From the IMG/VR virus record IMGVR_UViG_2531839454_000020: 34,734 nt of DNA. One strand, written 5' to 3'. Below the pieces are notes generated by a model that did no database searches, was not told the origin of the DNA, and worked only from the letters and a program-made list of their open reading frames with translations. Shown here in pieces: positions 13,632 to 33,750 of the stretch. The position numbers and the translations under genes were made by a program. Numbering within the stretch: position 1 is the first letter of the stretch; every line of letters begins with the position of its first letter. The stretch is from a virus (lineage: Duplodnaviria > Heunggongvirae > Uroviricota > Caudoviricetes).

Positions 13632-14465
13632 ATGAATATTACACAAGATAACTTAGACATTTTCACGGGGTCGCATGTTGAAGTCTCCGTGTCTACTATG
13701 GTGGATAACCAGCCGGACTTTTTCGATCCTGCATTTAGTCCTATCGAGAACATCGCAGCATTTCCGACGATAACCGAATCCACAGAGATCCAGACGTTAG
13801 AAGAATATGACCATGATGTTACTGGTAAGTTGGCTGGCTATCGTAAACTTGAATCAACAACACTCACAGTAAACCGTGTTCTGGATGATGAACATCAAGC
13901 AATGTTGATGAAAGCGGTAGAGGATAAAACCCCTTTACGCTTCCGTATGTTCTATGTTGTGAACTCTGGCTATAGTGCTGCTAACACAGGATACTACGTC
14001 ATTTTTGATGCATACGTCACATCACACAAAACCCGTGGTAGCGATAACAAAGTTACTACCATCGAATTTAAATTAGATCCTGATGGTGGGATTCTCGACC
14101 GTGGTATTGCCACCGAAGGCCGGATCTTACGTCAAGGTGATTTTGGTTTGGGTGCTGGTGTAAATCCATTCACGGGTCCGATTGATAGCGAAGCATTAGC
14201 CGGAAACCGTTTCGTAACCTATCAGGGATCGAGCGCATCTAACCCATTTAGTGCTGATACTTCACTAATTCACGTTCAACCTAATGAAGATGGAGGATGG
14301 CAATTAACTTGCACCGCTTCCGGCGCACCACGTTTACGAGTTCGCACAGTCCAGAAAGACGGTAATTCTGGATGGGTGAAAGTGTATTCCACAGAAGAAA
14401 AACCGACACCAGCCGAGATTGAAGCCGTTTCTATCCATGACCGGATCGATTTCGGGGAATACTGA
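13632..14465 (+). CDS. structural protein (277 aa) with C-terminal Ig-like region; tail tube- or decoration-like
   Basis: SD AAGGGGT; C-terminal LTCTASGAPRLRVRTVQKDGNSGWVKVYS suggests a Big_2/Ig-like fold as seen on some major tail or decoration proteins. Confidence 0.4.
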   Translation: MNITQDNLDIFTGSHVEVSVSTMVDNQPDFFDPAFSPIENIAAFPTITESTEIQTLEEYDHDVTGKLAGYRKLESTTLTVNRVLDDEHQAMLMKAVEDKTPLRFRMFYVVNSGYSAANTGYYVIFDAYVTSHKTRGSDNKVTTIEFKLDPDGGILDRGIATEGRILRQGDFGLGAGVNPFTGPIDSEALAGNRFVTYQGSSASNPFSADTSLIHVQPNEDGGWQLTCTASGAPRLRVRTVQKDGNSGWVKVYSTEEKPTPAEIEAVSIHDRIDFGEY

Positions 14466-14538: not shown

Positions 14539-17500
14539 ATGCAATCAATCCAATTTAAACGAACTAATGTTTCTGGCAAAAAACCAACGCCGGAACAATT
14601 ACAGGTCGGTGAGGTAGCAATCAACCTTAAAGACCATGTTATTTTTACCAAAGACCGAGATCATGAAGTAGTTCAAATCTCTGTTTCTCCTGAAACTCAC
14701 GCGGCACTAGAATCTAAAGTTGATGCTAATAAAAAAGAACTGGATAGCACAATTGTAGTAAACGACCGCAATATTCACGCTAAAGTAGATGAAATTAAAC
14801 AAACTACTGATGCAACAATCGCAGCAAATCACGCAGAAATTAACAATAAAGTTGATGTAATTAAACGCGAAACCGACGCGACAATCGAGGCCAATAAAAA
14901 TAAAGCTGCTTCCGATCTTGCTGGTGTTAAAGCTGAATTGTCGGATACCATCAACGCTAATAAAAATGCGGCTGCTGTAGCAACTCAGGAACTGGACACC
15001 CGCATCAATAAAAAAGTTGATGATATTAAATCCCGTACCGATGCAACCATCGTAAGCAATCACAAAGCAATCAATGACAAAGTTGATTTGATTAAGGCAG
15101 AAACTGACCGCACTATCGCAGCAAATCACGCCTATGCGGAAAATCAGTTAACTGACACCTACAATAACCTTACTGGTGTGATTGCAGCCAATAAGCAAGA
15201 GGCAGCGGATAACGTCGCAGCATTAACCCGTGATGTTGAAGCCAAAAATACAGCAATTCATAGCAAAGTTGACAATAACAAGTCTTACACTGATTCTGAA
15301 TTGGCACGCTTAGAAAGCCGTATTGATGCAGCCGATGGATCAAGTGATGGTAAGTACATCAAAAAGCACGTAAACACTTGCACTGATGGCTATTTGCTGT
15401 CTAAGACCGCAAACCCTTTTGATGATCCGAGTGCTCTTAATCTTGATTACTTTGGTGCATTTCGCATGAATGACCTGGCGGGTCATATTGCAATGATCTT
15501 GCATGTTCCGCACCCATCCGGCGTTAATCATGCTCGTGGTTTTGAGTTCACTTATGGGTCTAATCCACATGCTACTGTAAGAACATACGGCTATGATGAA
15601 TTGGGACATTTGGCATATTCTCACCGCATGTATCATGAAGGTGATAAACCTACTCCGGCTGAAATTGGCGCATATTCGAAAGCAGAAATTGACCGACTGT
15701 TCCAGAAGACGCTTAATTTTGGTATCGAGGGTGGTTGGTTTAAACTAGGCACTTTGACAATGCCACAACAACACGGTCGCACGGCTAAGATCCGTTTGGT
15801 AGGTGGTAACGGTTATAACGTAGGACATAATGGAAAAGCCAATATTATCGAATTGGTGATTCGATGCGGCAACAATAGCCCGAAAGGTGTTGTATTCAAT
15901 GCGTATTATACTATTTGGCATTATGAACAACATTTTTGCGCTATTCCAACCGATGGCGACAATTACGATCTTTACGCTTACTACGGTGCACATACAGGAT
16001 TTGTTTTAGCAGAATATCAAGTTTCTTCCGGTGGTGTTTCTTTAAACCTGTTGGATACTCCTGAATATCTGGGTGGTGAAAAACCTGTTGCAGATGAAAT
16101 TTTTGATGCTCTTAACATTTCATCGTTCAATAACTTTAGCAACCGTGGGACGTTAAATTTTGCTGGCAATCATCAAGGCCAATATGATATTGAGCATTTA
16201 AACGAACAACCGACAAATGCTAAAAAGATGTTGCGTCGCTTCCGTAGTTGTGCACCAGCTACAATCTGGCATGAGACAGTTGATGATAACGCATATCGTC
16301 TTGCTACTGGATACGAAGATACAAATCAGGAATTATTGCTGACAGCAACATCCGGGTTACATGTCAAGAAATTAACATTGGATGGCGGTGTTACTGGAAA
16401 TTCTGGTATTGATATTCGTCGAGGACCAAACGAATCAAGTCATTTTAATTTCATGGATTATCGCACTGGACAAGATGTTCGTAATGGTTGGTTTGGTTTT
16501 GGTGATGGAACAACCAAAGATTTTATTTGGTGGAACGATAACGGTCAAAACTCTATAAACCTGATTGAAGATGGTGAATTGCATATTACTGGCGGTAAAG
16601 GCCAGAAAATTGTAATGAATAGCGAAGTTGCATTATCTGAAAATGCTCGTTTGGCTGTCAAAGGTGGTAACTATGGCTTAATTTTTAGAAATGATGGCGT
16701 TGGCTTCCATATTCTTACCACAGATCTCGGTGATTCATTTGGACCGTGGAATACTCGTAGACCATTCAGCTATAATTTTGCTGACGGTGGATTATATTTA
16801 GGTGGCACTGAAACTGCTCGTTGTTTGCATCTTGGAATTGATGGTAGTACCCGTCTTGAAGACAACCTTTTCTTTAAAGCTGGTTCTCGTCAATCTATGG
16901 ACTATATGGAACTCGTCCATTGGGGGGCAAGCAATACAGGTCGAAATAACGTTTTAAGTCTTCGTGACTCAAAAGGATTTTTCGCAGAATTTGAACGATT
17001 GGGTGATAATACCATTAAAAACACCTTCTTCGGGAAACTTAAAGTTAATCGTGGTTCTGACGCAATCGTCATGAATGCCGAAACGGGTGATTCGTCTATA
17101 TATTTGCTGGGTACTTGTGCTGATAATAACAACTGGTATATCGGTAAAGGTGGTGCTGATAATGGATTAGCGTTCTATAGCTATGCTACTAATGCTGCTA
17201 TCAATATTACAAACGCGGGTGATATCGCGCTAAGTCCAAAAGGTGTCGAAATGACTCATGTCAATAACGTTCGATTCTATGTTCATGGTGAACGTTGGAC
17301 TGCTAGCCAATCTGGAGGTTGGGGCGATCAATGGGGATTAGAAGCGCCGATATTTGTCGATCATGGTTATGTAGGACCAGATAGCTATTATCCAATTATT
17401 AAAGGAAGAAGTTTAATCACCAATCAAGGGTATACAACTGCCGTCGATTTTGGTATGCGTCGTGTTCCTCAAAATTGGGGGCAAGCAATTATTCGCGTTG

Positions 17501-17949
17501 GATCTGCGGAGGCATCGCCAGCGGCTGGTCATCCTCAAGCGGTGTTTGAATTTCATCATGATGGTACTTTCTATTCTCCTGGTAATGGTAACTTTAACGA
17601 TGTTTATATTCGTTCCGATGGTCGTCTGAAAATTAATGTTGAAGATTACGAAGAAAATGCGGTGGATAAGGTAAATAAACTCAAAGTTAAAACCTACGAT
17701 AAAGTTAAATCTCTTAATGACCGAGAAGTTATAGGTCATGAGATTGGTATTATCGCACAGGATTTACAAGAGGTATTACCGGAAGCTGTTAAAACCGCAA
17801 AAATTGGTGGTCTTGATAACCCAGAAGAAATTTTAACAATTTCAAACTCCGCAGTGAACGCGCTTTTAATTAAAGCGGTCCAAGAAATGAGCGAAGAAAA
17901 TAAACTTCTTCGTGAACGTCTTGCTGCAATTGAAGCTAAATTAGGGTAA
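14539..17949 (+). CDS. L-shaped-type tail fibre with C-terminal intramolecular chaperone (peptidase S74-like), 1136 aa
   Basis: N-terminal FKRTNVSGKKPTPEQLQVGEVAINLKD; four KVD-x-IK-xx-TD-x-TI-xx-NH repeats; C-terminal ~110 aa beginning S|DGRLKINVEDYE and ending in a coiled coil, as in auto-cleaving chaperone domains of T5-type fibres and endosialidases (recalled). Confidence 0.75.
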   Translation: MQSIQFKRTNVSGKKPTPEQLQVGEVAINLKDHVIFTKDRDHEVVQISVSPETHAALESKVDANKKELDSTIVVNDRNIHAKVDEIKQTTDATIAANHAEINNKVDVIKRETDATIEANKNKAASDLAGVKAELSDTINANKNAAAVATQELDTRINKKVDDIKSRTDATIVSNHKAINDKVDLIKAETDRTIAANHAYAENQLTDTYNNLTGVIAANKQEAADNVAALTRDVEAKNTAIHSKVDNNKSYTDSELARLESRIDAADGSSDGKYIKKHVNTCTDGYLLSKTANPFDDPSALNLDYFGAFRMNDLAGHIAMILHVPHPSGVNHARGFEFTYGSNPHATVRTYGYDELGHLAYSHRMYHEGDKPTPAEIGAYSKAEIDRLFQKTLNFGIEGGWFKLGTLTMPQQHGRTAKIRLVGGNGYNVGHNGKANIIELVIRCGNNSPKGVVFNAYYTIWHYEQHFCAIPTDGDNYDLYAYYGAHTGFVLAEYQVSSGGVSLNLLDTPEYLGGEKPVADEIFDALNISSFNNFSNRGTLNFAGNHQGQYDIEHLNEQPTNAKKMLRRFRSCAPATIWHETVDDNAYRLATGYEDTNQELLLTATSGLHVKKLTLDGGVTGNSGIDIRRGPNESSHFNFMDYRTGQDVRNGWFGFGDGTTKDFIWWNDNGQNSINLIEDGELHITGGKGQKIVMNSEVALSENARLAVKGGNYGLIFRNDGVGFHILTTDLGDSFGPWNTRRPFSYNFADGGLYLGGTETARCLHLGIDGSTRLEDNLFFKAGSRQSMDYMELVHWGASNTGRNNVLSLRDSKGFFAEFERLGDNTIKNTFFGKLKVNRGSDAIVMNAETGDSSIYLLGTCADNNNWYIGKGGADNGLAFYSYATNAAINITNAGDIALSPKGVEMTHVNNVRFYVHGERWTASQSGGWGDQWGLEAPIFVDHGYVGPDSYYPIIKGRSLITNQGYTTAVDFGMRRVPQNWGQAIIRVGSAEASPAAGHPQAVFEFHHDGTFYSPGNGNFNDVYIRSDGRLKINVEDYEENAVDKVNKLKVKTYDKVKSLNDREVIGHEIGIIAQDLQEVLPEAVKTAKIGGLDNPEEILTISNSAVNALLIKAVQEMSEENKLLRERLAAIEAKLG
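17617..17946 (+). other. predicted auto-cleaved intramolecular chaperone domain of the fibre
   Basis: Begins at the Asp of ...YIRS|DGRLK...; 110 aa to the stop. Confidence 0.55.
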
Positions 17950-18948: not shown

Positions 18949-19419
18949 ATGACTACTAAATTTGATATTTTTTCTGGTGGCCTCGTTGGTCTGTTTCTGC
19001 ATGAAGAAGTAACTAACACCGATCTTGACAGTGAAAGCTATCTGGAAATTCCAGAATGTGCGGCTTTCCCGGAAACTGGTGTAGAACGTTCTACTGTCGA
19101 TGTTCCTAACTTCGGTGGTCCGTATAACCGTAAGCTGGTTGGTCGTATGTCTGTACCGGATATCGAACTTTCGATCAACTACATGCCGGGTAACGAAGTA
19201 CACGAAAAACTGATTAAAGCAACCGAAGACGGTAAGCGCGTACAGATTAAAATTGCTTACTACATCGACGCTACGAAAAAATCTGGTGTACATATCGCTT
19301 ATAACGGCTTCCTGTCTAAAACTACCATGACTGGTGGTGAGGATGCTGTAGTAGGCCGTACCTTCACCTTTGTAGTAGATGGTGCTCCGGTTAAACAAGC
19401 TGTTTTCCAGAAACTCTAA
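18949..19419 (+). CDS. major tail (tube) protein, putative (156 aa)
   Basis: Directly upstream of the G/T chaperone pair and tape measure; strong SD GAAGGAAAAG; followed by a strong terminator. Confidence 0.5.
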   Translation: MTTKFDIFSGGLVGLFLHEEVTNTDLDSESYLEIPECAAFPETGVERSTVDVPNFGGPYNRKLVGRMSVPDIELSINYMPGNEVHEKLIKATEDGKRVQIKIAYYIDATKKSGVHIAYNGFLSKTTMTGGEDAVVGRTFTFVVDGAPVKQAVFQKL

Positions 19420-23932: not shown

Positions 23933-24352
23933 ATGCTAAAAACTAGGCTTATCACCGATTACATCAATTCTTTAATAGGTCAGGAGTTCGTTCAAGGCGA
24001 GAATGATTGCAATATAATTGCATGTAAGATCATCGATATTCTCGCTGGTACTGACCTATATAATTCTCTTTATAAAAAATATTCAACTAAAGAAGAAGGC
24101 TTGAAAATCTGCAAAGAATTAAGCGGATACACAAATATCCTTCAACCAATTAAGAAACATTTCAAATTAGTCACTGATGATTTACAGGACGGCGACTTAC
24201 TGGTCACAGCCCACAAATTAGGAAACCGCAAATATTATTCCGTAGTTCCTCATTATTCCGGTTATGGCCTCGTTGAAGAAGATGGTATCTGGATGACCAT
24301 TCCTGTTTCAGACATTGACTATGAACAAGTTTATAGATTCGGGGGGGAATAA
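23933..24352 (+). CDS. tail assembly protein (lambda K-like, NlpC/P60-type), 139 aa
   Basis: Start at MLKTRL with GGAGGT SD; ENDC motif suggests an NlpC/P60-type catalytic Cys; stop overlaps the next start. Confidence 0.45.
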   Translation: MLKTRLITDYINSLIGQEFVQGENDCNIIACKIIDILAGTDLYNSLYKKYSTKEEGLKICKELSGYTNILQPIKKHFKLVTDDLQDGDLLVTAHKLGNRKYYSVVPHYSGYGLVEEDGIWMTIPVSDIDYEQVYRFGGE

Positions 24353-27300
24353 TGGGATTTGAAATATTGGTAGGCGCGGTTATTGCTGGTGCGTCTGCTG
24401 GGATGGCTGCTGCTGCAACATTTTCTGTTATGACCGCAGTCGCTATCGGTATGGCTGCTGGTGCAATGACCTTGATCGCTTCCACTGTAGGCGCACCAAA
24501 AACACCGAAAGTACAAAGCCCAGATAATGCGGTGACACTAGGAACATCAAACGATCCTAAGACAGTATTCCCCGTTCTTTTCGGTACTACCCGCACGGGT
24601 GCAATCTGCGTTTACAAAGCAATTTCACAGCGTGAAAACAACAAACTGGTACAAATTTTTGCTATTTCCGAAGGTGAGATCGATCACTTTAAAGCACTGC
24701 ACATCGATAATAAAAACGTTCTCATTAGCCAGAATATGACAATTCGTGATGGCATTCTCGATAAAGGAAACATTAAAGACGAATACCGCAAAGTTTTAGA
24801 AGTCGAGTTTCGCACGGGTAAAAATCCTAACACTGCATTGGATTTAGCTAAACATCATTTGGGCGCTGATTGGGATGATCGGTATCAGGGTAACGGCATT
24901 GCGACCATGTGTATTGTTTTACGTCGTGATGACAAATCTTTGGCTGCTGGTGTTGATATTCTCCAGCCTAATAGCCAGGTAGCGGTCGATGTTATGGGCT
25001 TAAAGATTCGTAACCTTGAAACCAATGCTATTGAGGCTAGCACTAACGGCGTGGACCAGATTTTCCATTATCTGACAAATACAAAGTATGGTCTTAGTGT
25101 ACCGATTGAAAATATTAACGTTGATTCATTCCTGAAAGTGCGTAAACAAGTACGCCAGATGGATTTACATTCCAACGGTGCATGTGATCCGAACGCCAGC
25201 TTTAAAGAGAACTTAACTAGCCTTATGCAGACTTTCGGCGGGGTGATGTTCGAATCCTTTGGACGTATTACGCTGAAACTGGATGCTCCTGATATTGTTA
25301 AGCATACTTTCAATGAAGACAATATCATGATGGGTAAGGTATCACTGAAAACAGGTGGCACTAACGGTTATTTCAATACCATTAACGCGATGTATCAAGA
25401 ACCATCAATCGACTATTCAGAGCAAATGCTACGTTATCCGGCTGATGCTGAAAACGATGCTACTATTCGTCAAGATGGTCGAATTATCGCTAAAGATATC
25501 GAATATCGTTTTGTTAAGTCTAAAGCCCAGATTGATAAACTAGCAAGTATTGAACGAAATAAATCTCGTATCACTCAGGTTATCAGCTTTATGACTACTG
25601 ACGCGTTCACTGCCGAAGTGTGGGATGTTATTAGCGTTACCTATGATGAATTGAAACTGAATAATTCACTTTGGCGCATTACTGCAATTGATCGTTCTAT
25701 TGATTCTGGTATTGCTGGGATGATGACTATCACCGCTACAGAATATAATTCTCAGGTTTATACTGACCTGAACTATGCGGCGACTCCAGACAATAGACCT
25801 ACTGGTTTACCGGATTCAATGACAGTACAGAAACCGACTAATTTCAGAATTAAGGCAACTGGTGAGACAATCCACGGTAAAAACGTTACTTTGACATGGG
25901 ATGCACCGGAAGATTTTAACCGCTACGGTTTCCAGATTGATTATCGTGTGAGTGGATCACCTAACTGGATTAAGCTGGGACAGACTTCACAGCAAATTTT
26001 CAATATCAATGCACTGGCAAAAGATCGTTCCTACGATTACCGCGTTTGTGCTTTCGGTATTATTGCTCGTTCCGAATGGGTGGAACTGGTTAACCAGAAT
26101 CCAGAAGTTACCTATGAACTGCCTACGCCAGTGATCCGCATCAAAAATCAGGGTGGCACACCAGGAACTTTTGAAGGCAATGATCTGATTATCGAATGGG
26201 ATAACCAGCAACAATTAGATGTGATGATCAACGGTGAAGCTAACAAGTTTAGTGACCTGTTTGAAGCATACATTATCAAGGTAACTAACAAGGCTGGTAA
26301 GTCTATTCAGTACCGTACCCGCGATCCTGAATCATGGACGTATACGCTTGATATGAACCAGTTTAACGGCCTTTCGCGTCAACTGACGGTAGAAGTATCA
26401 GCTAAGGGCTATAACAACTCAGAGAGCGCCCCAGCGCGTTTAGTGGCTATCAACCCACAACATAAGCCGATGAAAGGTTTTAGTGCGCGTGGTGGCTTTA
26501 ATACTGCGTTTGTTAGCTGGGCGGATGACGTAGAACATGACTATGCAGGGTCAATCATCCAGTATGCAACCGATAATACTTTCTCCGATGCAAGGGCAGT
26601 GACTACCAATAGCGTTAGTCATACTTCCTTTGATTTGGCTGACGGGGATTATTATATCCGTGGTGCTCACTATGATATTTTCGGTATGGATGATGCTGTT
26701 TGGTCTGAACCGTATTTCATGCAAATGAAATCTACCATTAGCTGGGACGATCAGGACAAAGAAGCACTGGAAGACCTGATTGGTTTACAAGATCGCTTAG
26801 ATGAAACCATCGCGGATGCTATTGCTCAAGCTGGCGCTAATGCCGATGCTAAGATTGATGCAATGCATAAACAGATTACTACCGAAACCGGAAAGACGGT
26901 CCAAGCCTCAGCCGATACCCTTAAGAATCTGATTGCTACCAGTGAGCAAGCCAGCGCAACTAAGATTGATCAGGTTAAAGCTGAACTGAAAGGCGATATC
27001 ACCAAAGAAGTTAGCGCATCCGCTACTACCCTGAAACAAGCAATTGCTACCAGTGAGGCAGCAAGCGCAAGTAAGATTGATCAAGTTCGGGTAGAAATGG
27101 ATGGCAAGATTGCTGGTGTGAATCAGGAAGCAGATGTAAAAATCGATGCTTTGAAGGGAACCATTAACAGCAAATATAATCTGGCAGTTAATGCAGATGG
27201 TCGCGTGGCTGGTATTCATATGAGCGCAACCAATGATCCGGCAGAACCGACAAGAATCATCTTTACGGCTGATAAAATCGCGGTAGCTCCACAAGACGGA

Positions 27301-28098
27301 TCAGAAGTTTGTCCGTTTGGCATCGAAGATAACAAAGTTTATCTTGATAATGCGATGATTCGTAATGCTGCAATTGGCACAGCCCAGATTAGTGATGCTA
27401 GTATCACCACGGCTAAGATCGGCACAGCCCAGATTAACGGCGCTCACATCCAACACGCACAGATCGGAACAGGTCATATCATTGATGGCTCTATCGATAA
27501 TGCTAAAATTGGTAACTATATCCAGTCTTATAACTGGAATGGTAACGATGGATGGTATATCGGCAAAGATGGCACTTGTCATTTTAGACACGCTAATATT
27601 CGTGGTCATTTGGTGGCTGATTCCGGCGAAATGAACAACGTAACGATTAATTCAAGTTGCCGCATTTTGGGTATGCTTGATGCTAATCAGGTGCGTGGTG
27701 ACTTCGTGAAAGTGGTTGGTAGGAGTTTCCCGCATCGCCAACCAAACTGGCCTGATGGTACAATCACTGTAAGGGTCGAAGATGATCATCCATTCGATCG
27801 CCAAATAGTGATTCCAGCGATTCATCATAACGGGTCTGTTCGTAGTGGCGAAAGTAGCGATCATTGGGATACTTGCCGACTAATCGTTAAGAAAAATGGT
27901 GGTGTTCTATATGATCGCACTGCAACTTCTGGCTGTATGTACAGTGGAGTTATTGACATGCCAGCCGGACACGGGGCAGTAACAATGACTTTTGAAGTTT
28001 ACTGTAAGGGCGTTAACAACTATAACCCAAGTGCATATATCAGCGATCTAACGGTAATGGTAACTAAGAAAGCCGCTACTGGTATTTCTGTTTCTTAA
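24352..28098 (+). CDS. central tail fibre / host specificity protein (lambda J-like) with gpI-like hydrophobic N-terminus, 1248 aa
   Basis: Gly/Ala-rich hydrophobic N-terminus; long central region; C-terminal DDHPFDRQIV...VIDMPAGHGAV...VMVTKKAATGISVS resembles the receptor-recognition end of lambda-type J proteins (recalled, not aligned). Confidence 0.7.
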   Translation: MGFEILVGAVIAGASAGMAAAATFSVMTAVAIGMAAGAMTLIASTVGAPKTPKVQSPDNAVTLGTSNDPKTVFPVLFGTTRTGAICVYKAISQRENNKLVQIFAISEGEIDHFKALHIDNKNVLISQNMTIRDGILDKGNIKDEYRKVLEVEFRTGKNPNTALDLAKHHLGADWDDRYQGNGIATMCIVLRRDDKSLAAGVDILQPNSQVAVDVMGLKIRNLETNAIEASTNGVDQIFHYLTNTKYGLSVPIENINVDSFLKVRKQVRQMDLHSNGACDPNASFKENLTSLMQTFGGVMFESFGRITLKLDAPDIVKHTFNEDNIMMGKVSLKTGGTNGYFNTINAMYQEPSIDYSEQMLRYPADAENDATIRQDGRIIAKDIEYRFVKSKAQIDKLASIERNKSRITQVISFMTTDAFTAEVWDVISVTYDELKLNNSLWRITAIDRSIDSGIAGMMTITATEYNSQVYTDLNYAATPDNRPTGLPDSMTVQKPTNFRIKATGETIHGKNVTLTWDAPEDFNRYGFQIDYRVSGSPNWIKLGQTSQQIFNINALAKDRSYDYRVCAFGIIARSEWVELVNQNPEVTYELPTPVIRIKNQGGTPGTFEGNDLIIEWDNQQQLDVMINGEANKFSDLFEAYIIKVTNKAGKSIQYRTRDPESWTYTLDMNQFNGLSRQLTVEVSAKGYNNSESAPARLVAINPQHKPMKGFSARGGFNTAFVSWADDVEHDYAGSIIQYATDNTFSDARAVTTNSVSHTSFDLADGDYYIRGAHYDIFGMDDAVWSEPYFMQMKSTISWDDQDKEALEDLIGLQDRLDETIADAIAQAGANADAKIDAMHKQITTETGKTVQASADTLKNLIATSEQASATKIDQVKAELKGDITKEVSASATTLKQAIATSEAASASKIDQVRVEMDGKIAGVNQEADVKIDALKGTINSKYNLAVNADGRVAGIHMSATNDPAEPTRIIFTADKIAVAPQDGSEVCPFGIEDNKVYLDNAMIRNAAIGTAQISDASITTAKIGTAQINGAHIQHAQIGTGHIIDGSIDNAKIGNYIQSYNWNGNDGWYIGKDGTCHFRHANIRGHLVADSGEMNNVTINSSCRILGMLDANQVRGDFVKVVGRSFPHRQPNWPDGTITVRVEDDHPFDRQIVIPAIHHNGSVRSGESSDHWDTCRLIVKKNGGVLYDRTATSGCMYSGVIDMPAGHGAVTMTFEVYCKGVNNYNPSAYISDLTVMVTKKAATGISVS

Positions 28099-28116
28099 AA
28101 TTTAATTCTAATAATT

Positions 28117-28157
28117 AATCCCGCTTAATTCTTTTGAGTTAGGCGGGATTATTTTTA
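28117..28157 (+). terminator. terminator-like hairpin after the J-like gene
   Basis: aatcccgc/gcgggatt 8-bp stem with large loop, then atttttat. Confidence 0.45.
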
Positions 28158-28203
28158 TCTAAATAATTCTGCCATTAAATTATATAAAAATATCGGGGGC
28201 GTA

Positions 28204-28482
28204 ATGACTGAAATTATATATGGCGGTATCGGTGTTATCGCCTTAATTTGTGGTGGGCTTTGGAGACTTCACCGAAATCAATTAGCCACAGAAAATAGAT
28301 TGTCGAAATTGGAATCCAGCGACGCATTGTTAAACCAGAAGTTTGAGACGATGCAGAATAACCATACTCAGATTGCTGAACGTGTTTACCAAATGGAACA
28401 AACACTACACGGTATAGAGAAGAAAGTGGTTGCGATGGACGCCAAATTTGACCAAGTTCTCGACATACTCAAACAAAAATAA
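28204..28482 (+). CDS. membrane protein with one N-terminal TM helix and coiled coil (92 aa); holin- or i-spanin-like candidate
   Basis: IYGGIGVIALICGGLW hydrophobic segment then helical C-terminus; SD GGGGGCG. Confidence 0.4.
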   Translation: MTEIIYGGIGVIALICGGLWRLHRNQLATENRLSKLESSDALLNQKFETMQNNHTQIAERVYQMEQTLHGIEKKVVAMDAKFDQVLDILKQK

Positions 28483-28500
28483 TAATAAAGGGGTGAATAT

Positions 28501-28671
28501 ATGAAGAATAAACTTAAGAAATATTTTGGTTATCTCTTGATTGTCGCCCTCACTTATAACGTAGCTATTAGACCTCTGCTAACGTCCTTTGGGCTTGAAC
28601 TCCCGGCTATGACCGTGGATGAACAATTGCTAAGGACACTGGCGGGGGTCTTTTCGTTATTAGGGGGCTAA
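28501..28671 (+). CDS. small membrane protein (56 aa); holin-like candidate
   Basis: MKNKLKKYFGYLLIVALTYNVAIRPLL... with one TM; SD AGGGGTG; stop 1 nt before the next start. Below the track cut-off. Confidence 0.4.
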   Translation: MKNKLKKYFGYLLIVALTYNVAIRPLLTSFGLELPAMTVDEQLLRTLAGVFSLLGG

Positions 28672-28672
28672 C

Positions 28673-29356
28673 ATGGCAACCAGTACCAATAAACGAAACG
28701 CTCTAAGGACAAAGAAAGCGTTACGCCAATGGACTGATAAAGCAACCGATACATTCGAAAGGGCGATAGGGGAAGGGGCGATCTTTGCTGCTCGTGCACT
28801 CCAGAAGAAGATTAACAAGAATGTTGATAGACCTACTCGATGGACTCAGCAAGCTGTAGGTAATACCAACTACAAGAACCGATCAGGGACGAGACACCAA
28901 ATCTTCATCAAGGGCGCAAGGGATAAGGACAAGAAGATCGGCAGTCAGGATGACTATCTGAAACACTATTTCGATGGTGGCAAAATCAATAAGCTAGTTC
29001 CAATCGCTAACGGCAAGGTCTTAGACGCCCACGGGAACATTAAGGCCATCAAAGGCGGTAAGATGATGCGTAACCTCGAAAACGGCAACTTCATCAAGGT
29101 AGAGAACAAGGAAGGGACTTTTATCATGAAGAAGTACAAGCCTAAGAAATCCCGAACCAAACGCGCTAGGAATGGATCGGCGGTGGCAAAACGTCGCTTA
29201 GAGAAACGCATACAGAAACAGAGCAAGCGAATTGTTGCCGTTAAATCGGATAAAATTTCTACTCGTTATTCGACGCTAGGATTGTGGGAAAGCAACGAAG
29301 CAATGATGCTTGAAAACATCAATAAGCACATTAAATCGCGCATGAAATACGTTTAA
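28673..29356 (+). CDS. highly basic hypothetical protein (227 aa)
   Basis: Lys/Arg-rich throughout (KKYKPKKSRTKRARNGSAVAKRRLEKRIQKQSKR); SD GGGGGC. Confidence 0.55.
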   Translation: MATSTNKRNALRTKKALRQWTDKATDTFERAIGEGAIFAARALQKKINKNVDRPTRWTQQAVGNTNYKNRSGTRHQIFIKGARDKDKKIGSQDDYLKHYFDGGKINKLVPIANGKVLDAHGNIKAIKGGKMMRNLENGNFIKVENKEGTFIMKKYKPKKSRTKRARNGSAVAKRRLEKRIQKQSKRIVAVKSDKISTRYSTLGLWESNEAMMLENINKHIKSRMKYV

Positions 29357-29366
29357 TCCATAAATA

Positions 29367-29388
29367 CCCTCATAGAAACTTATGGGGG
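29367..29388 (+). promoter_or_regulatory. hairpin whose 3' arm contains the SD of 29395
   Basis: ccctcata-gaaact-tatggggg; ATAAATA immediately upstream (29360..29366). Confidence 0.45.
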
Positions 29389-29394
29389 TATAAC

Positions 29395-29742
29395 ATGGCT
29401 AAAAATATTTTCACTGAATTTCCTACTTATCCGGTCGACCAGCTTTCCGGTATTTTTATCAATGGCATTAGCCCAGAATCAATGACCTATGATTTTGAGG
29501 CGAAGAGAGTCCAACATAAACAATTCAAGCAGATGATCCGCGATGATGGTAACGGGCTAGTGTTTTGTGTTGCGACACTCGCTAAACGTCCTAAGTATCG
29601 CTTTCGTGTAGGGCAGGAGATTGATGTAGTTAATCCTTACAACTTCAATTGTATTGGCGATACACGCGCGGTGTGTGTAGGGACAACTAACTATTATATC
29701 AAGGGACTTAGATTTACCGGCTATCTTATGCAATATATCTAA
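29395..29742 (+). CDS. hypothetical protein (115 aa)
   Basis: ORF with GGGGGT SD. Confidence 0.5.
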   Translation: MAKNIFTEFPTYPVDQLSGIFINGISPESMTYDFEAKRVQHKQFKQMIRDDGNGLVFCVATLAKRPKYRFRVGQEIDVVNPYNFNCIGDTRAVCVGTTNYYIKGLRFTGYLMQYI

Positions 29743-29751
29743 GGGGGTAAT

Positions 29752-30105
29752 ATGTTAAGTAAGCATTTTTCTCGCAAGGAATTTAAATGTAAATGCGGAA
29801 AATGTGATTATGATACAATCGACGCTGAATTACTGGTGATTCTTGAGGATGTACGAGAGCACTTCGGTAAACCAGTGATTATTAACAGTGGCAACCGTTG
29901 CCCGACTCATAACAAGAATGTAGGCGGGGCAGCCAATAGCTATCACGTTCGAGGCCGCGCGGCTGACATATCGGTGAAAGGAATTTCTCCTGATATTGTT
30001 CATGCTTATCTTGATGGGAAATATCCTACTCAATACGGCTTAGGAAAATATAAAACCTTTACGCATATTGATTCCAGATCAAAAAAATCACGGTGGAATG
30101 GATAA
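29752..30105 (+). CDS. endolysin, peptidase M15 family (zinc peptidoglycan peptidase), 117 aa
   Basis: SYHVRGRAAD (H-x6-D) and FTHID zinc-ligand pattern; SD AAGGGGGT. Confidence 0.7.
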   Translation: MLSKHFSRKEFKCKCGKCDYDTIDAELLVILEDVREHFGKPVIINSGNRCPTHNKNVGGAANSYHVRGRAADISVKGISPDIVHAYLDGKYPTQYGLGKYKTFTHIDSRSKKSRWNG

Positions 30106-30469
30106 AACAAAAGCGCCCACCAGAGGCGCTTTTTTGTTAGAATATGCTGGCGACGTTAGCTATATTTCTGACCATTTTTTCATTATAGACAAATATACCG
30201 CAGATGATAAAGTGGTATTCGACGAAGTTGATCCGTCTCTGGTTGAAGCAATGAAAGAACCTGAGATCGTCATTGAAGAAACAAAAGAAGAATCTCCAGC
30301 AGTTGAACCAGTGGTCGAAGAAGTTAAGTCAGATGTTGAAGAAGCACCGGAAGTTAAAGTGAAATCTCCGGTAGCCAACATTTTCTCTGACGAAGCAGAA
30401 CATCGTTCCCCAGCGCATGACACTGATTCATTTTGCGATCTTACTGGTTTCCAAAACTACAATAATTAA
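30098..30469 (+). CDS. acidic hypothetical protein; start uncertain
   Basis: Open frame with an E/V/P-rich acidic region; its 5' end overlaps the endolysin stop and the terminator, so the true start may be internal (e.g. ATG at 30251). Confidence 0.3.
   Translation: MDKTKAPTRGAFLLEYAGDVSYISDHFFIIDKYTADDKVVFDEVDPSLVEAMKEPEIVIEETKEESPAVEPVVEEVKSDVEEAPEVKVKSPVANIFSDEAEHRSPAHDTDSFCDLTGFQNYNN
30111..30136 (+). terminator. intrinsic terminator after the endolysin gene
   Basis: aagcgcc-caccaga-ggcgctt followed by tttttt. Confidence 0.6.
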
Positions 30470-30515: not shown

Positions 30516-30806
30516 ATGAATACTACTTTAGCAAAGGATATCGAATTTACCGCAAAAAGCAAACGTGCGACCCCTCCGGTCGAATATGAAATCAGAATCA
30601 TTAAAGTTTGTCAAGCGCATGGATGGTTATACAGTGGTTTTGTGCTTCCTGTAAAGAAACCATTCCAGAACACCAAAGTTTGCATAGAAGTTAACGGAAA
30701 GGTTAAAACGCCATGTATTAGTCATGTTCTAACTGGTCAGTTTACTGGCAAAGATAGAGTATCACCGCCTAAGAAGAAGTTTAGATTTACCGAAGAAGAA
30801 CACTAA
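30516..30806 (+). CDS. hypothetical protein (96 aa)
   Basis: ORF directly after the conserved element. Confidence 0.5.
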   Translation: MNTTLAKDIEFTAKSKRATPPVEYEIRIIKVCQAHGWLYSGFVLPVKKPFQNTKVCIEVNGKVKTPCISHVLTGQFTGKDRVSPPKKKFRFTEEEH

Positions 30807-30845
30807 GAAAACGCTCGCAAGTTCTAAAAGCCGATAGGGTGGGAT

Positions 30846-31514
30846 GTGTTAGGTCTGGCTGAACCTTATCAGGGTGTTGACACTAAACTAATTCTTCGTT
30901 GTAAGTGCCACGGAAAGATTCACAAGAAAGGTGATTTACACAATAACCGCAGACAAGGCGGGTTAACATGCCCTTTGGTTAGGGGTGTACTTAAATCAAT
31001 TCAGAATGGTAGAAAACAGGTTATCAGAAACAAGTTTGCACAGCGCTCTATGCACTTTTATCTAATTCGTGTTGGCGAGAAGTTTTTCAAATATGGAATT
31101 ACCACTCGCAAAGATCCGATGCAACGGGTAAGAGAACACCAGAAGCACACCAGCGAGAAAATCACCTTTGAATGCTCACATTTGTTTAACATTGGATGGA
31201 AAGCTGGTGATTTAGAAATGGGGATTAAAAAGAATATTCAGGGCAAGAAAATCCCACGTAAGGTAATGAATAGCGGATTCACAGAAACGCTACCGATTAG
31301 CAAGCTGAAAGATGTTAAATCATTCATCAATGAATACATCCACACCAACCCATCTAAGCCAATGTATTTTGATGATACCAACGCAATCAATCTGAACAAC
31401 TACATTAGTGATGAAGACATAGAACGAGATTTATCGCAGTGGATGAATGCACCGTTAGCTGATTTAATACCGGAAGACTTAGAACTCGATTTAAGCCCTT
31501 TAGAGGCTCTTTAA
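30846..31514 (+). CDS. GIY-YIG-type homing endonuclease-like protein with N-terminal Cys/His-rich extension (222 aa, GTG start)
   Basis: FYLIRVGEKFFKYGITTRKDPMQRVREH ... TFECSHLFNI ... E..IKK resembles the GIY-YIG catalytic core (recalled); preceded by CKCHGKIHKKGDLHNNRRQGGLTCPL. Confidence 0.45.
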   Translation: MLGLAEPYQGVDTKLILRCKCHGKIHKKGDLHNNRRQGGLTCPLVRGVLKSIQNGRKQVIRNKFAQRSMHFYLIRVGEKFFKYGITTRKDPMQRVREHQKHTSEKITFECSHLFNIGWKAGDLEMGIKKNIQGKKIPRKVMNSGFTETLPISKLKDVKSFINEYIHTNPSKPMYFDDTNAINLNNYISDEDIERDLSQWMNAPLADLIPEDLELDLSPLEAL

Positions 31515-31587: not shown

Positions 31588-33267
31588 TTAAATTCCAAAT
31601 TCCTGTAATGGACCTGGTATTTCCTCTTCTGGTTTCCAGTTCTTATCTGTCAGCATGTCTAAACATGGATGCAGAACAAGCCCGTTGCTCTCCAGAATCT
31701 GCCTATCATTGATAGTTTTCAAATCAATGAATATCCGGCCTTTCCTCGTTCCTCTTGAATTTTCTATTACAACTCTCTGGGTCTTTCCATCGATGTATTC
31801 CAGTACAAACAAGTTTTTGTTTCTGTCAATCCTGCTACACCCGATCCGCTTTAGAGCTTGCTTAATCTTAAACCGGACCTTTAGTCGTTCCTCGTTATAA
31901 ACATCTTCTAAATCAAATTCTGCGAGCTTCTCCCAGCCTTGAGAGTCCACAGAATACATTTCCTCTTCTGCCATCTTGATCTGATTGTAGAGTGTTTCAC
32001 GCTCGCTATTGAGGGTAGTAATCTGATCGGCTAGCTCCTTCGTTGCTCCTGTCATAGCAGAAAGGGCAATCAGGTTATCAATCTTGCGTGATATTTCATC
32101 AACCTGTACTTTCAAAGCCGGAACCGGATTAGCCTTGTCCTCAGCAATCCAGATTTTATCAGCCAGCAATTGCAATACAGCTTTCTCTAATTGATCACCT
32201 CGAAAACTCCAGTTTGGATGCTCGCAATCAAGTCTACGTGAACGGGTCGCATCACATGTATAACGATACTGGTCAGAACGTTTGTTTGTTCCCTTCACTT
32301 TAACCATAGCGCAGCCGCAATGATCACATTTCAATAGGCCAATACCACTAAGCAGGGGGATCGGTTTAACTTCTTCCTTCTCTCCAAAGTTCCATGCTCT
32401 AGCACCAATATTTTTCTTAAGGTGATAGAACGTAGCATCATCAATAACACGAGGGTAATAATCCTTTAACTCATAGTTAACGCCATCTACAGAGACTTCC
32501 TTGATACCAATCAAAGCGCGGGTATGGAACAACCTTTCAACCATTGCCCGTGACCATTTTGAATGCTTCTTGTTGCTTACTGCTGGTGGTGGTGCATATG
32601 TCTCGTTAAGGTGATCCAGTATTTCGGCGGTTGAACGTCCATTCTTCCGTAATTCCACAATCTCCTGAACAACAGGGAAGTACACCGGATGAGGCAGCAC
32701 ATAACCGGAAGTGGTATCAGTCCACCACATATTCTTTCCAACTTCCTCGATTGCCACTGCCGGATTCTGGGGATTTTCTTGATGAGCTTTAATCTTAATC
32801 AGTGCGCTTGAGTTAGTACGATTGCGCTTAGTCTGACTTTCCTCATTACCACGGATGAATAAAAGGATGGAGAACATCAGGTCCATCGGATTAGCGGTAA
32901 CAGTATCCAGCGAGTAGATCTTGTTATCCATGCCAGTAACAATGGTTATTCCCCTACGGATGATTGAAAGGAATAACTCCTGCGCACTGACAATATCGGC
33001 ACGGGATAAGCGGTCCAAGTTTTCAATGAATAGCCAGCTACCAACAGGAACGGATCTACCAATTGCATCAAGGAAACGAGATAACGCCCCTGTTTTAGAG
33101 TTAGCACCCTTAAACGCAGATACACCCAGATCCTGATAATCATTTACCAGTTCAAGGTCATACTTTGCCGCAACCTCTCTCGCCATCCTGATTTGTCGTT
33201 CATAACTCGAACCATCATTCTGACGCATAGACGAGAAGCGAATATACGAATACAGTTTAGTTTTCAT
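31588..33267 (-). CDS. large serine recombinase (integrase/resolvase family), ~559 aa
   Basis: N-terminal MKTKLYSYIRFSSMRQ...YERQ resolvase catalytic motif, Cys-rich CDHCGC...C zinc ribbon, C-terminal coiled coil; the track start at 33282 adds 5 residues. Confidence 0.8.
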   Translation of the reverse strand: MKTKLYSYIRFSSMRQNDGSSYERQIRMAREVAAKYDLELVNDYQDLGVSAFKGANSKTGALSRFLDAIGRSVPVGSWLFIENLDRLSRADIVSAQELFLSIIRRGITIVTGMDNKIYSLDTVTANPMDLMFSILLFIRGNEESQTKRNRTNSSALIKIKAHQENPQNPAVAIEEVGKNMWWTDTTSGYVLPHPVYFPVVQEIVELRKNGRSTAEILDHLNETYAPPPAVSNKKHSKWSRAMVERLFHTRALIGIKEVSVDGVNYELKDYYPRVIDDATFYHLKKNIGARAWNFGEKEEVKPIPLLSGIGLLKCDHCGCAMVKVKGTNKRSDQYRYTCDATRSRRLDCEHPNWSFRGDQLEKAVLQLLADKIWIAEDKANPVPALKVQVDEISRKIDNLIALSAMTGATKELADQITTLNSERETLYNQIKMAEEEMYSVDSQGWEKLAEFDLEDVYNEERLKVRFKIKQALKRIGCSRIDRNKNLFVLEYIDGKTQRVVIENSRGTRKGRIFIDLKTINDRQILESNGLVLHPCLDMLTDKNWKPEEEIPGPLQEFGI

Positions 33268-33330
33268 ACCATTTCCAAACAAAAACGCCCCTACCGCGTA
33301 TTATAACGATAGGGGCTAGGTGATTAAAGA

Positions 33331-33750
33331 TTAAAGAATTTCACGGCAGCTAATCAGGGGATAAGATGTATCACCTTTTTTAACATCAAATATAGGAGCG
33401 CCATCTACAGAATGCAGATATTTGATGTAAGACTTACCATCTTCGGAACCATAATATTCTTCTTTCTCGTTCTTATCTTCTTTCAGTTTCGGGCTTTTGA
33501 TTGTTTTATCAAATACCGGATCGTTGAAAGCAAATTGACTATTATCATCATTCACTCGAACCTTTACACCGATAAAACCACGGTATTTGCCAGACGGCGC
33601 ATGATAATAACGGTCGCCATCACTCAGGTAGCGTGTATCATCTCCTTTATATTCGAAGTAGGAATTGCACACATAATAGGTATAGGTATTAGCATTCGCA
33701 GCACCAACCAAACCCAGAGCAAGAACAACACCCGCGATAATCTTTTTCAT
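33331..33750 (-). CDS. secreted/periplasmic hypothetical protein (139 aa) with signal peptide
   Basis: MKKIIAGVVLALGLVGAANA signal-like N-terminus (no lipobox Cys); two Cys near the ends of the mature part. Confidence 0.55.
   Translation of the reverse strand: MKKIIAGVVLALGLVGAANANTYTYYVCNSYFEYKGDDTRYLSDGDRYYHAPSGKYRGFIGVKVRVNDDNSQFAFNDPVFDKTIKSPKLKEDKNEKEEYYGSEDGKSYIKYLHSVDGAPIFDVKKGDTSYPLISCREIL

Follow-up and report, generated by a model that had tools for sequence, protein, structure and literature searches.

A terminator-bounded late gene cassette with an M15 endolysin, two holin candidates and no recognizable spanin in an Escherichia coli prophage

The DNA of IMG/VR record IMGVR_UViG_2531839454_000020 (34,734 nt; hereafter the window, that is, the whole stretch analysed) represents a 34.7-kb temperate siphophage prophage integrated in the Escherichia coli gene ycdX. 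Downstream of its tail-tip gene lie five genes that a first-pass annotation had described as a dispersed lysis region lacking a recognizable spanin: two encode small transmembrane proteins, and these are followed by genes for a basic protein of 227 amino acids (aa), a protein of 115 aa and an endolysin of the M15 type. All five open reading frames (ORFs) were recovered exactly as described, and with the hairpins that flank them they form the following arrangement.

28116..28161, plus strand: terminator-like hairpin between the tail-tip gene and the cassette, with a 16-bp stem at 28116-28151, then a T-run, TTTTTATCTA
28204..28482, plus strand: p92, 92 aa, with an N-terminal transmembrane domain (TMD) at residues 4-20 and a coiled coil of ~70 aa
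28501..28671, plus strand: p56, 56 aa, a membrane protein with one TMD and no Cys
28673..29356, plus strand: p227, 227 aa, highly basic (isoelectric point, pI, 10.7), overlapping PHROG 1924
29395..29742, plus strand: p115, 115 aa, conserved, always encoded directly 3' of a gene of the p227 family
29752..30105, plus strand: M15 endolysin, 117 aa, a Peptidase_M15_3 zinc peptidase
30109..30133, either strand: bidirectional terminator-like hairpin directly after the endolysin stop, GCGCC...GGCGC with T-runs on both strands

These five ORFs are real genes, because their order is conserved (the same five genes follow one another in divergent prophages of E. coli, Salmonella and Providencia), the ratios of nonsynonymous to synonymous substitution rates (dN/dS) across them are 0.04-0.21 (0.20 for p92 and 0.11-0.21 for p56), and their Shine-Dalgarno sequences are uniform, with GGGG(G) located 6-9 nt upstream of each start codon. 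The p227 gene starts 1 nt past the stop codon of p56. In the Providencia relative L030, a hairpin with a T-run precedes the cassette and a second hairpin follows the endolysin gene, both at equivalent positions. With five co-oriented and tightly spaced genes between two terminator-like hairpins, the region appears to be the last unit transcribed from the late operon. When the DNA and the proteins of the cassette were compared with 50,697 phage records, no match was obtained for p92, p56 or p227, and nothing similar to p92 or p56 was found in isolated phages; by these comparisons the lineage is one without an isolated phage relative.

The 117-aa product of the last gene matches Peptidase_M15_3 (PF08291; E 3.5e-28, 98.3 bits against a cut-off of 23.2) and PHROG 894, 'endolysin' (E 1.4e-45), and the zinc/catalytic residues H65-x6-D72 and H105-x-D107 are conserved in four orthologues. 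The N-terminus is hydrophilic and contains neither a signal sequence nor a signal-anchor-release (SAR) sequence, and the peptidase would thus be cytoplasmic. It is the sole muralytic domain detected among the sizeable ORFs of the prophage. A search for an alternative lysis cassette in the early and integrase-proximal regions gave no match to a muralytic or holin family; a hydrophobic ORF at 479-652 is unannotated in strain PEC41, which carries a complete copy of the prophage, and shows no evidence of being a gene. In the distant relative L034, a T4-type GH24 lysozyme (PF00959, 3.9e-14) is encoded directly after the p115 homologue, that is, in the endolysin slot, and its start overlaps the stop of the preceding p115-like gene. 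Non-orthologous replacement in a fixed slot is typical of lysis cassettes and therefore supports the assignment of the M15 protein as the endolysin.

The closest known counterparts of this protein are the annotated endolysins of SP6-like podophages (Autographiviridae; for example, gp43 of Proteus phage PM93), which are alike in size and single-domain architecture and 62-64% identical over the full 117 aa. Small membrane-protein genes likewise adjoin the endolysin gene in these phages, but there they follow and overlap it, whereas here they are located upstream and two genes apart. A role as a tail-associated entry lysin was also considered and is unlikely, since the protein is small, has a single domain, is encoded outside the tail genes and is swapped for a T4-type lysozyme in a relative.

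An endolysin without a signal sequence requires a holin, and because no other conserved small membrane protein is encoded by the phage, p92 and/or p56, which share the terminator-bounded unit with the M15 gene, are the candidates. Topology prediction, which the first-pass annotation had proposed as a check, yielded one TMD for each protein. In p92, the TMD is preceded by MTE and followed by RLHRN, which predicts an N-out/C-in orientation and a cytoplasmic C-terminal domain; this soluble part of ~70 aa runs in one continuous heptad register with 75% hydrophobic a/d positions, lacks Cys and has a charged coiled-coil C-terminus ending in ...DILKQK. The p92 family (~50 clusters in a large homology search) is confined to prophages of E. 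coli, Salmonella and Providencia, as is the p56 family to this prophage group, and Pfam returned only coiled-coil noise for p92 itself. Distant homologues were more informative. The L034 protein (105 aa, 28% identical) matches the PHROGs 1296 ('holin', 2e-7), 739 ('Rz-like spanin', 1.3e-4) and 937 ('hemolysin', 2e-4), the last of which we take, from its PHROG name only, to be XhlA-like. A 91-aa protein of L036, tied to the p92 family by hhalign (E 1e-4) through the common motif W...ENR(L/I)SxxE, matches PHROG 7686 ('Rz-like spanin', 5e-6). These matches may in part be due to the TMD-plus-coiled-coil composition, but they nonetheless place p92 among lysis-type architectures.

The second membrane protein, p56, consists of a Lys-rich N-terminus (MKNKLKK), a TMD at about residues 8-27/31 and, after a loop, a short C-terminal helix that is hydrophobic and ends in GG. 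It is hydrophobic, with a net charge of only +3, and its mature part is hydrophobic and acidic and not Pro-rich. No Cys is present in the proteins from E. coli, Salmonella or Providencia, and the single Cys of the L034 homologue is not conserved. PHROG 2024, which is labelled as of unknown function, is matched weakly by p56 (5e-3) and more strongly by its L034 counterpart (1e-6), and further homologues were detected in L035-L037 by tblastn. p92 resembles holins in size, TMD and its charged C-terminus (~60-150 aa, at least one TMD, a hydrophilic charged C-terminus), and p56 does so in size and TMD only. p92 appears to be the best candidate for the holin or a holin partner, and p56 could be a second holin, a co-holin, an antiholin or an accessory protein of the Lcc6/XhlB type. 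Of the lysis functions that the first-pass annotation had proposed, that of the M15 endolysin is upheld, and the holin role of the membrane proteins is argued by exclusion and by the weak PHROG similarity of distant homologues. Three other assignments were considered for p56: that of an outer-membrane lipoprotein spanin subunit (o-spanin) was rejected because it has neither a Cys nor a lipobox; a cleaved secreted peptide is unlikely, as every lineage has a TMD of 20-23 aa as its hydrophobic stretch and conservation does not extend to the internal Arg; and a disruptin like gp28 of phage phiKT was rejected on the grounds of hydrophobicity and charge.

As far as can be read from the sequence, the spanin is absent from the whole phage. 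Every ORF was scanned from every ATG, GTG and TTG in six frames with strict and relaxed lipobox rules ([LVI][ASTVI][GAS]C in the o-spanin test), and the whole window and the complete PEC41 prophage contained no credible lipoprotein, only spurious out-of-frame matches. Within p92 and p56, no embedded or overlapping ORF of at least 30 aa was found on the plus strand. Both o-spanins and unimolecular spanins (u-spanins) require a lipoprotein ORF and are thus excluded: a u-spanin like T1 gp11, with a lipoprotein signal and a C-terminal TMD, is ruled out in both copies, and the lipobox of a two-component spanin with an o-spanin was found nowhere in the phage. The first-pass observation that neither a lipobox nor an overlapping spanin pair is visible therefore extends to all frames and start codons, and a spanin encoded elsewhere in the genome, which would have spoken against it, was detected neither in the window nor in the whole prophage of PEC41. 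Phages of this kind have been described: 91 of 677 phages of Gram-negative hosts (~13%) have no identifiable spanin, and some of the 91 contain no lipoprotein ORF in any frame (PMC6139136).

The genes for p227 and p115 separate the holin candidates from the endolysin. p227 contains 56 Lys and Arg residues versus 19 Asp and Glu, and its orthologues all have pI values of 10.6-11.2. Its most cationic stretch, a K/R-rich insert (KKYKPKKSRTKRARNG...KRRLEKRIQKQSKR), is lineage-specific and is not conserved in distant members. The family is very small and lineage-restricted: a search of 5.8 billion proteins yielded six clusters at 90% identity, and an exhaustive profile search of 1.84 billion proteins no more than 12 representative clusters at E<=1e-3. 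Its core motifs are (I/L)DxPTxFT, QxxYLxxxFxG, KFxP, YGNIxGL and KRxVAI. PHROG 1924, which carries the label 'minor tail protein', is matched over most of their length by nine of the 13 members (best P0084, 2.4e-33), and the match of the window p227 itself is weak (E 5.8e-4, residues 28-196 versus 25-204 of the 237 profile positions). The same PHROG is matched by gp44 of Rhodobacter phage RcCronus (2.8e-57), which shares the motifs (I/L)DRPTxFT, Q/AxxYL...GG and (Y/F)GN(I/L) with the p227 family, and weakly (1.9e-4) by the tail completion protein gpZ of lambda (PHROG 27, 3e-69); P0084 in turn matches PHROG 27 (5.5e-3). p227 is strongly basic, and gpZ is K/R-rich as judged by eye only. The p227 gene adjoins lysis genes and is not located between head-closure and tail-tube genes.

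The first-pass annotation called the basic protein unusual in this position, but with its small family and the overlap of that family with PHROG 1924, p227 is not an orphan oddity. Its neighbour p115, likewise of a lineage-restricted family (17 clusters in a large homology search), has no match in Pfam, PHROG or NCBIfam; hhalign revealed no similarity to lambda gpU or RcCronus gp20, and Foldseek with a poor p115 model gave nothing at E<0.05 and no TM-score >0.41. Sequence searches of the PDB with the p227 and p115 profiles were negative. From its homologies, p227 is probably a virion or tail-completion-like protein, which is the best supported reading of this protein but not a secure one.

The arrangement of these genes differs between three prophage lineages. 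In lineage A (the window, Salmonella and Providencia), the order is tip-p92-p56-p227-p115-M15. In lineage B (L034), it is tip-two ORFs-p92-p56-p227-p115-GH24 lysozyme-integrase. In lineage C (L035-L038 and L048, with proteins 30-50% identical; L036, L038 and L048 belong to record IMGVR_UViG_2654587654_000004), it is tail tube-DUF6950-tip-p92-(endonuclease VII insert)-p56-p227-p115-chaperones-tape measure-prophage end, and the opposite prophage end carries the genes for the distal tail protein (Dit), the hub and a minus-strand T4-type GH24 lysozyme. Hence the four upstream genes stay together and travel with the tail-tip gene, whereas the endolysin is exchangeable and, in one lineage, unlinked. 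The p227-like and p115-like genes of lineage C immediately precede the chaperone and tape-measure genes, which recalls the lambda order Z-U-(V)-G-T-H. Between its capsid and tail-tube genes, lineage C has no more than two small genes, so that neck functions are left without an assigned gene. Both features favour a structural role of p227, and perhaps of p115 as well. Single-protein scans made to widen the sampling of contexts (P0075, P0076 and P0078) found nothing. In the same lineage (L048 8035-8848), a 68-aa lipoprotein (lipobox SLTAC) is encoded after a NUMOD3 homing-endonuclease-like gene.

With moderate confidence, the late cassette is best explained as a holin-endolysin system that lacks a spanin and is interrupted by two genes outside lysis, which are probably virion-related. 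p92, with its N-out/C-in topology and its cytoplasmic coiled coil, would form the holin alone or together with p56, and this holin would release the cytoplasmic M15 peptidase at a set time. p227 would be a gpZ-like, DNA-facing tail-completion or virion protein, and p115 possibly its partner; their placement between holin and endolysin would reflect the modular history of the tail-tip block and not a role in lysis. The outer membrane would be breached without a spanin, either passively or via a factor not yet recognized. A virion or tail-completion function of p227 would account for the dispersed layout. The layout noted in the first-pass annotation is confirmed, with the qualification that p227 is more likely to be such a protein than a lysis protein.

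It should be noted that several observations weigh against this explanation. On the side of lysis, neither p92 nor p56 matches a holin family in Pfam or NCBIfam, the sole PHROG holin match comes from a 28%-identical homologue and is possibly due to compositional similarity, and the C-terminus of p56 is not charged, as would be typical of holins. The four-gene block of lineage C is located inside the tail module, with the lysozyme gene at the other prophage end on the opposite strand, so that its link to an endolysin is not a strict one. On the side of the virion, an hhalign comparison of the p227 family with lambda gpZ alone gave no match, an experimental or proteomic basis for the name of PHROG 1924 was not found in the Rhodobacter phage paper, nor was virion evidence for any member, and the AlphaFold2 models of p227 and p115 (predicted local distance difference test scores, pLDDT, of 46 and 54) are too poor for fold testing. 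In addition, three extra genes for proteins of ~100 aa upstream of the tail tube in the lineage of the window could already supply neck functions.

It is possible, albeit unlikely, that p92, p56, p227 and p115 are all tail-tip, virion or infection proteins (for example assembly factors, ejection or membrane-insertion proteins, or proteins for superinfection exclusion), that the M15 gene is the only lysis gene, and that the true holin is unrecognized or absent. The constant position of the block 3' of the tail-tip gene would be explained directly, as would its location in lineage C between the tip and the chaperone/tape-measure genes with the lysozyme elsewhere, and the 'minor tail protein' label of PHROG 1924 and the fold matches of the p115 model, which are non-significant and mostly to tail beta-barrels, point in the same direction. 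However, the requirement of a signal-less endolysin for a holin would be left unfulfilled in a phage that encodes no other conserved small membrane protein, and homologues of p92 match PHROGs of the lysis category. Furthermore, L034 shows an endolysin swap in situ, immediately 3' of its p115-like gene, and a strong hairpin terminator separates the cassette from the tail-tip gene in two genera.

A second alternative, which we regard as improbable, is that p227 and/or p115, possibly together with p56, constitute a new outer-membrane disruptor that replaces the spanin. After release via the holin lesion, the polycationic protein would bind lipopolysaccharide and destabilize the outer membrane, like the 'disruptin' gp28 of phiKT. 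The phage as a whole is spanin-free, and the intervening genes lie between the holin candidates and the endolysin gene, a place where an outer-membrane factor might be expected in such a phage, in a manner reminiscent of phiKT, in which gene 28 lies between those for endolysin and holin (bioRxiv 10.1101/515445). The extreme charge is found in all orthologues, a K/R-rich insert is present, the gene order has been kept despite the endolysin swap, and a crude scan of RcCronus, in which the gene for the PHROG 1924 member lies a few genes from that for the endolysin, revealed no credible lipobox ORF. Nevertheless, p227 is four times the size of gp28 and has a globular-looking conserved core (IDRPTxFT, QxxYLxxxFxG, YGNIxGL), the most cationic insert is missing from distant members, p227 is weakly homologous to a tail-protein PHROG and to gpZ, and the genes of lineage C are embedded in the tail module.

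It is very improbable that p92 and p56 form a divergent, 'separated' two-component spanin with p92 as the inner-membrane subunit (i-spanin), p56 as a non-lipoprotein partner and the holin elsewhere: p92 looks i-spanin-like in having an N-terminal TMD and a coiled coil, its distant homologues match the two 'Rz-like spanin' PHROGs 7686 (5e-6) and 739 (1.3e-4), a small signal-anchor-like protein is encoded directly downstream, and non-canonical spanin anchors are considered conceivable by Kongari et al. (PMC6139136), but p56 has no lipobox, no Cys in three genera and only a non-conserved one in L034, and a mature part that is hydrophobic and acidic and not Pro-rich, the charges flanking the p92 TMD predict a cytoplasmic C-terminal domain in place of the N-in/C-out topology of i-spanins, the soluble domain of p92 has only ~70 aa and is Cys-free, whereas ~96% of two-component spanins have a periplasmic Cys (PMC6139136), and no holin candidate would remain in the phage.

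Comparison with known systems reveals both similarities and differences. As in the S-R-Rz/Rz1-type cassettes of lambda, one or more genes for small membrane proteins are clustered with that of a signal-less cytoplasmic muralytic enzyme, with which they would be co-transcribed late in infection, and the endolysin is exchangeable, but here no spanin is present, two conserved non-membrane genes lie between those for the membrane proteins and the endolysin, the cassette follows the tail-tip gene instead of preceding the terminase, and the holin candidates belong to no curated family. The accessory membrane proteins XhlA and XhlB belong to the lysis cassette of the Bacillus prophage PBSX, that is, of a Gram-positive host, and XhlA has its TMD at the C-terminus. 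The likeness lies in a TMD-plus-coiled-coil protein and a second small membrane protein that are encoded downstream of tail genes and upstream of a lysin; however, the TMD of p92 is N-terminal, and p92 has no match to Pfam XhlA. In the Shewanella prophage LambdaSo, the example of Lcc6 shows that a TM protein of ~65 aa can be required at the holin step (bioRxiv 10.1101/2024.01.23.576932). Unlike the prophage described here, LambdaSo has nested Rz/Rz1 genes.

The E. coli phage phiKT likewise has a holin-plus-endolysin cluster, no lipoprotein ORF, and small or basic genes between holin and endolysin (PMC6139136; bioRxiv 10.1101/515445). Its gp28 is a hydrophilic, strongly cationic, amphipathic peptide of 56 aa without a TMD, and the criteria for a disruptin taken from the same work are a peptide of <80 aa that is hydrophilic, amphipathic and helical, carries a charge of at least +4, lacks a TMD and is encoded in the lysis cassette (bioRxiv 10.1101/515445). 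A gp28-like disruptin was not found in the cassette, as p56 is hydrophobic with a charge of +3 and p227 has 227 aa. There is also no sequence similarity to gp28, and p227 differs from it in its larger size, its conserved core and its affiliation with a tail-protein PHROG.

How the outer membrane of Gram-negative bacteria is breached without a spanin is largely open, phiKT gp28 being the one substitute that has been characterized. Besides ~1% of complete E. coli genomes, Salmonella and Providencia also carry the prophage lineage described here; the phage encodes no lipoprotein, and its compact, conserved cassette combines two membrane-protein families and two further families with a swappable endolysin. 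As the host is E. coli, the standard complementation assays with lambda S-am and Rz/Rz1-am are applicable. If the intervening genes did encode an outer-membrane disruptor, they would represent a novel kind of lysis protein and an E. coli-based model of spanin-independent lysis distinct from the phiKT disruptin. If all four genes turned out to be ordinary, that is, to encode a holin, an accessory protein and two tail proteins, the result would still be a useful annotation of a recurrent enterobacterial prophage and of PHROGs 1924 and 2024.

With respect to the prophage as a whole, the cassette region of the window is 93-98% identical to that of a prophage found in 55 of 5,426 complete E. coli genomes. 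In PEC41, halves of ycdX are found on both sides of the element, and the window stops at its right end shortly before attR. Two further features were located near its ends.

1-284: gene fragment of an IS1414 (IS256-like) transposase, the left 284 bp of the window
31588-33282, minus strand: large serine recombinase (integrase) with Resolvase, Recombinase and Zn_ribbon_recom domains

Because the left 284 bp are a fragment of this insertion sequence (IS), ~1.3 kb of the left end of the prophage is absent from the window, which could mean that this copy is defective or that the contig broke in the IS. The counterpart in PEC41 contains one gene for a protein of 183 aa, the likeness of which to lambda Nu1 (small terminase subunit) was judged by eye only, and one for a protein of 101 aa; TMDs and lipoboxes are absent from both. 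The late genes comprise, in order, those for a gpA-type terminase (6684), a lambda-family portal, a protease-capsid fusion, a fibre, the tail tube, chaperones, the tape measure, Dit, the hub, DUF6950 and the 1,248-aa tail-tip protein, which ends at 28098.

The start of the tail-tip protein (window 24352-24500; residues 5-46) contains two strongly hydrophobic, Ala/Gly-rich segments, which are also kept in the distant relative L036 and recall membrane-inserting segments. The layout of the head-tail junction is unusual: two major-tail-protein-like genes for proteins of 277 aa and 156 aa, both PHROG 158 (13632-14465 and 18949-19419), enclose the gene for a 1,136-aa fibre (14539-17949) that carries an S74 intramolecular chaperone and a trimerisation domain of the T4 gp34 type, as well as three genes for proteins of ~100 aa without assignment. 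The early region (1-6600) comprises only ~6.6 kb and encodes a Rha-family regulator and several small proteins that look like helix-turn-helix proteins; no recognizable replication, repressor or antiterminator genes were detected there by Pfam.

Beside the integrase, a 139-aa protein without family matches (33331-33750, minus strand) starts with a classical Sec signal peptide (MKKIIAGVVLALGLVGAANA) and is probably a lysogenic-conversion moron; at the same position the Providencia relative L030 (16321-17550) encodes an OmpW/Opacity-like outer-membrane protein and a 106-aa lipoprotein. A nuclease-like gene at 30516-31514 (PHROG 681 endonuclease, with a weak T5orf172/MUG113 match) is a pseudogene in the window, in which an in-frame premature stop follows ...TEEEH, and is whole in PEC41 (333 aa), the two copies being 99% identical at the nucleotide level without gaps.

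Finally, the slot between endolysin and integrase seems to accumulate DNA of T-even phages. An ORF at 30098-30469 overlaps the endolysin stop, and 258 bp within it (30195-30452) are 97-98% identical to the middle of 'inh', a gene that encodes the prohead-protease inhibitor in Phi1, GEC-3S and other T4-like Krischvirus phages. The Salmonella copy has no close phage record at the DNA level. Other lineages of the prophage group carry T4-type lysozymes and homing-endonuclease-like genes. In the relatives L027 (9643-11448) and L029 (9533-11883), the slot contains UvsY, the UvsW helicase and a Phage-tail_1 fragment, and these contents parallel the Krischvirus gene order 25-uvsY-uvsW-inh.

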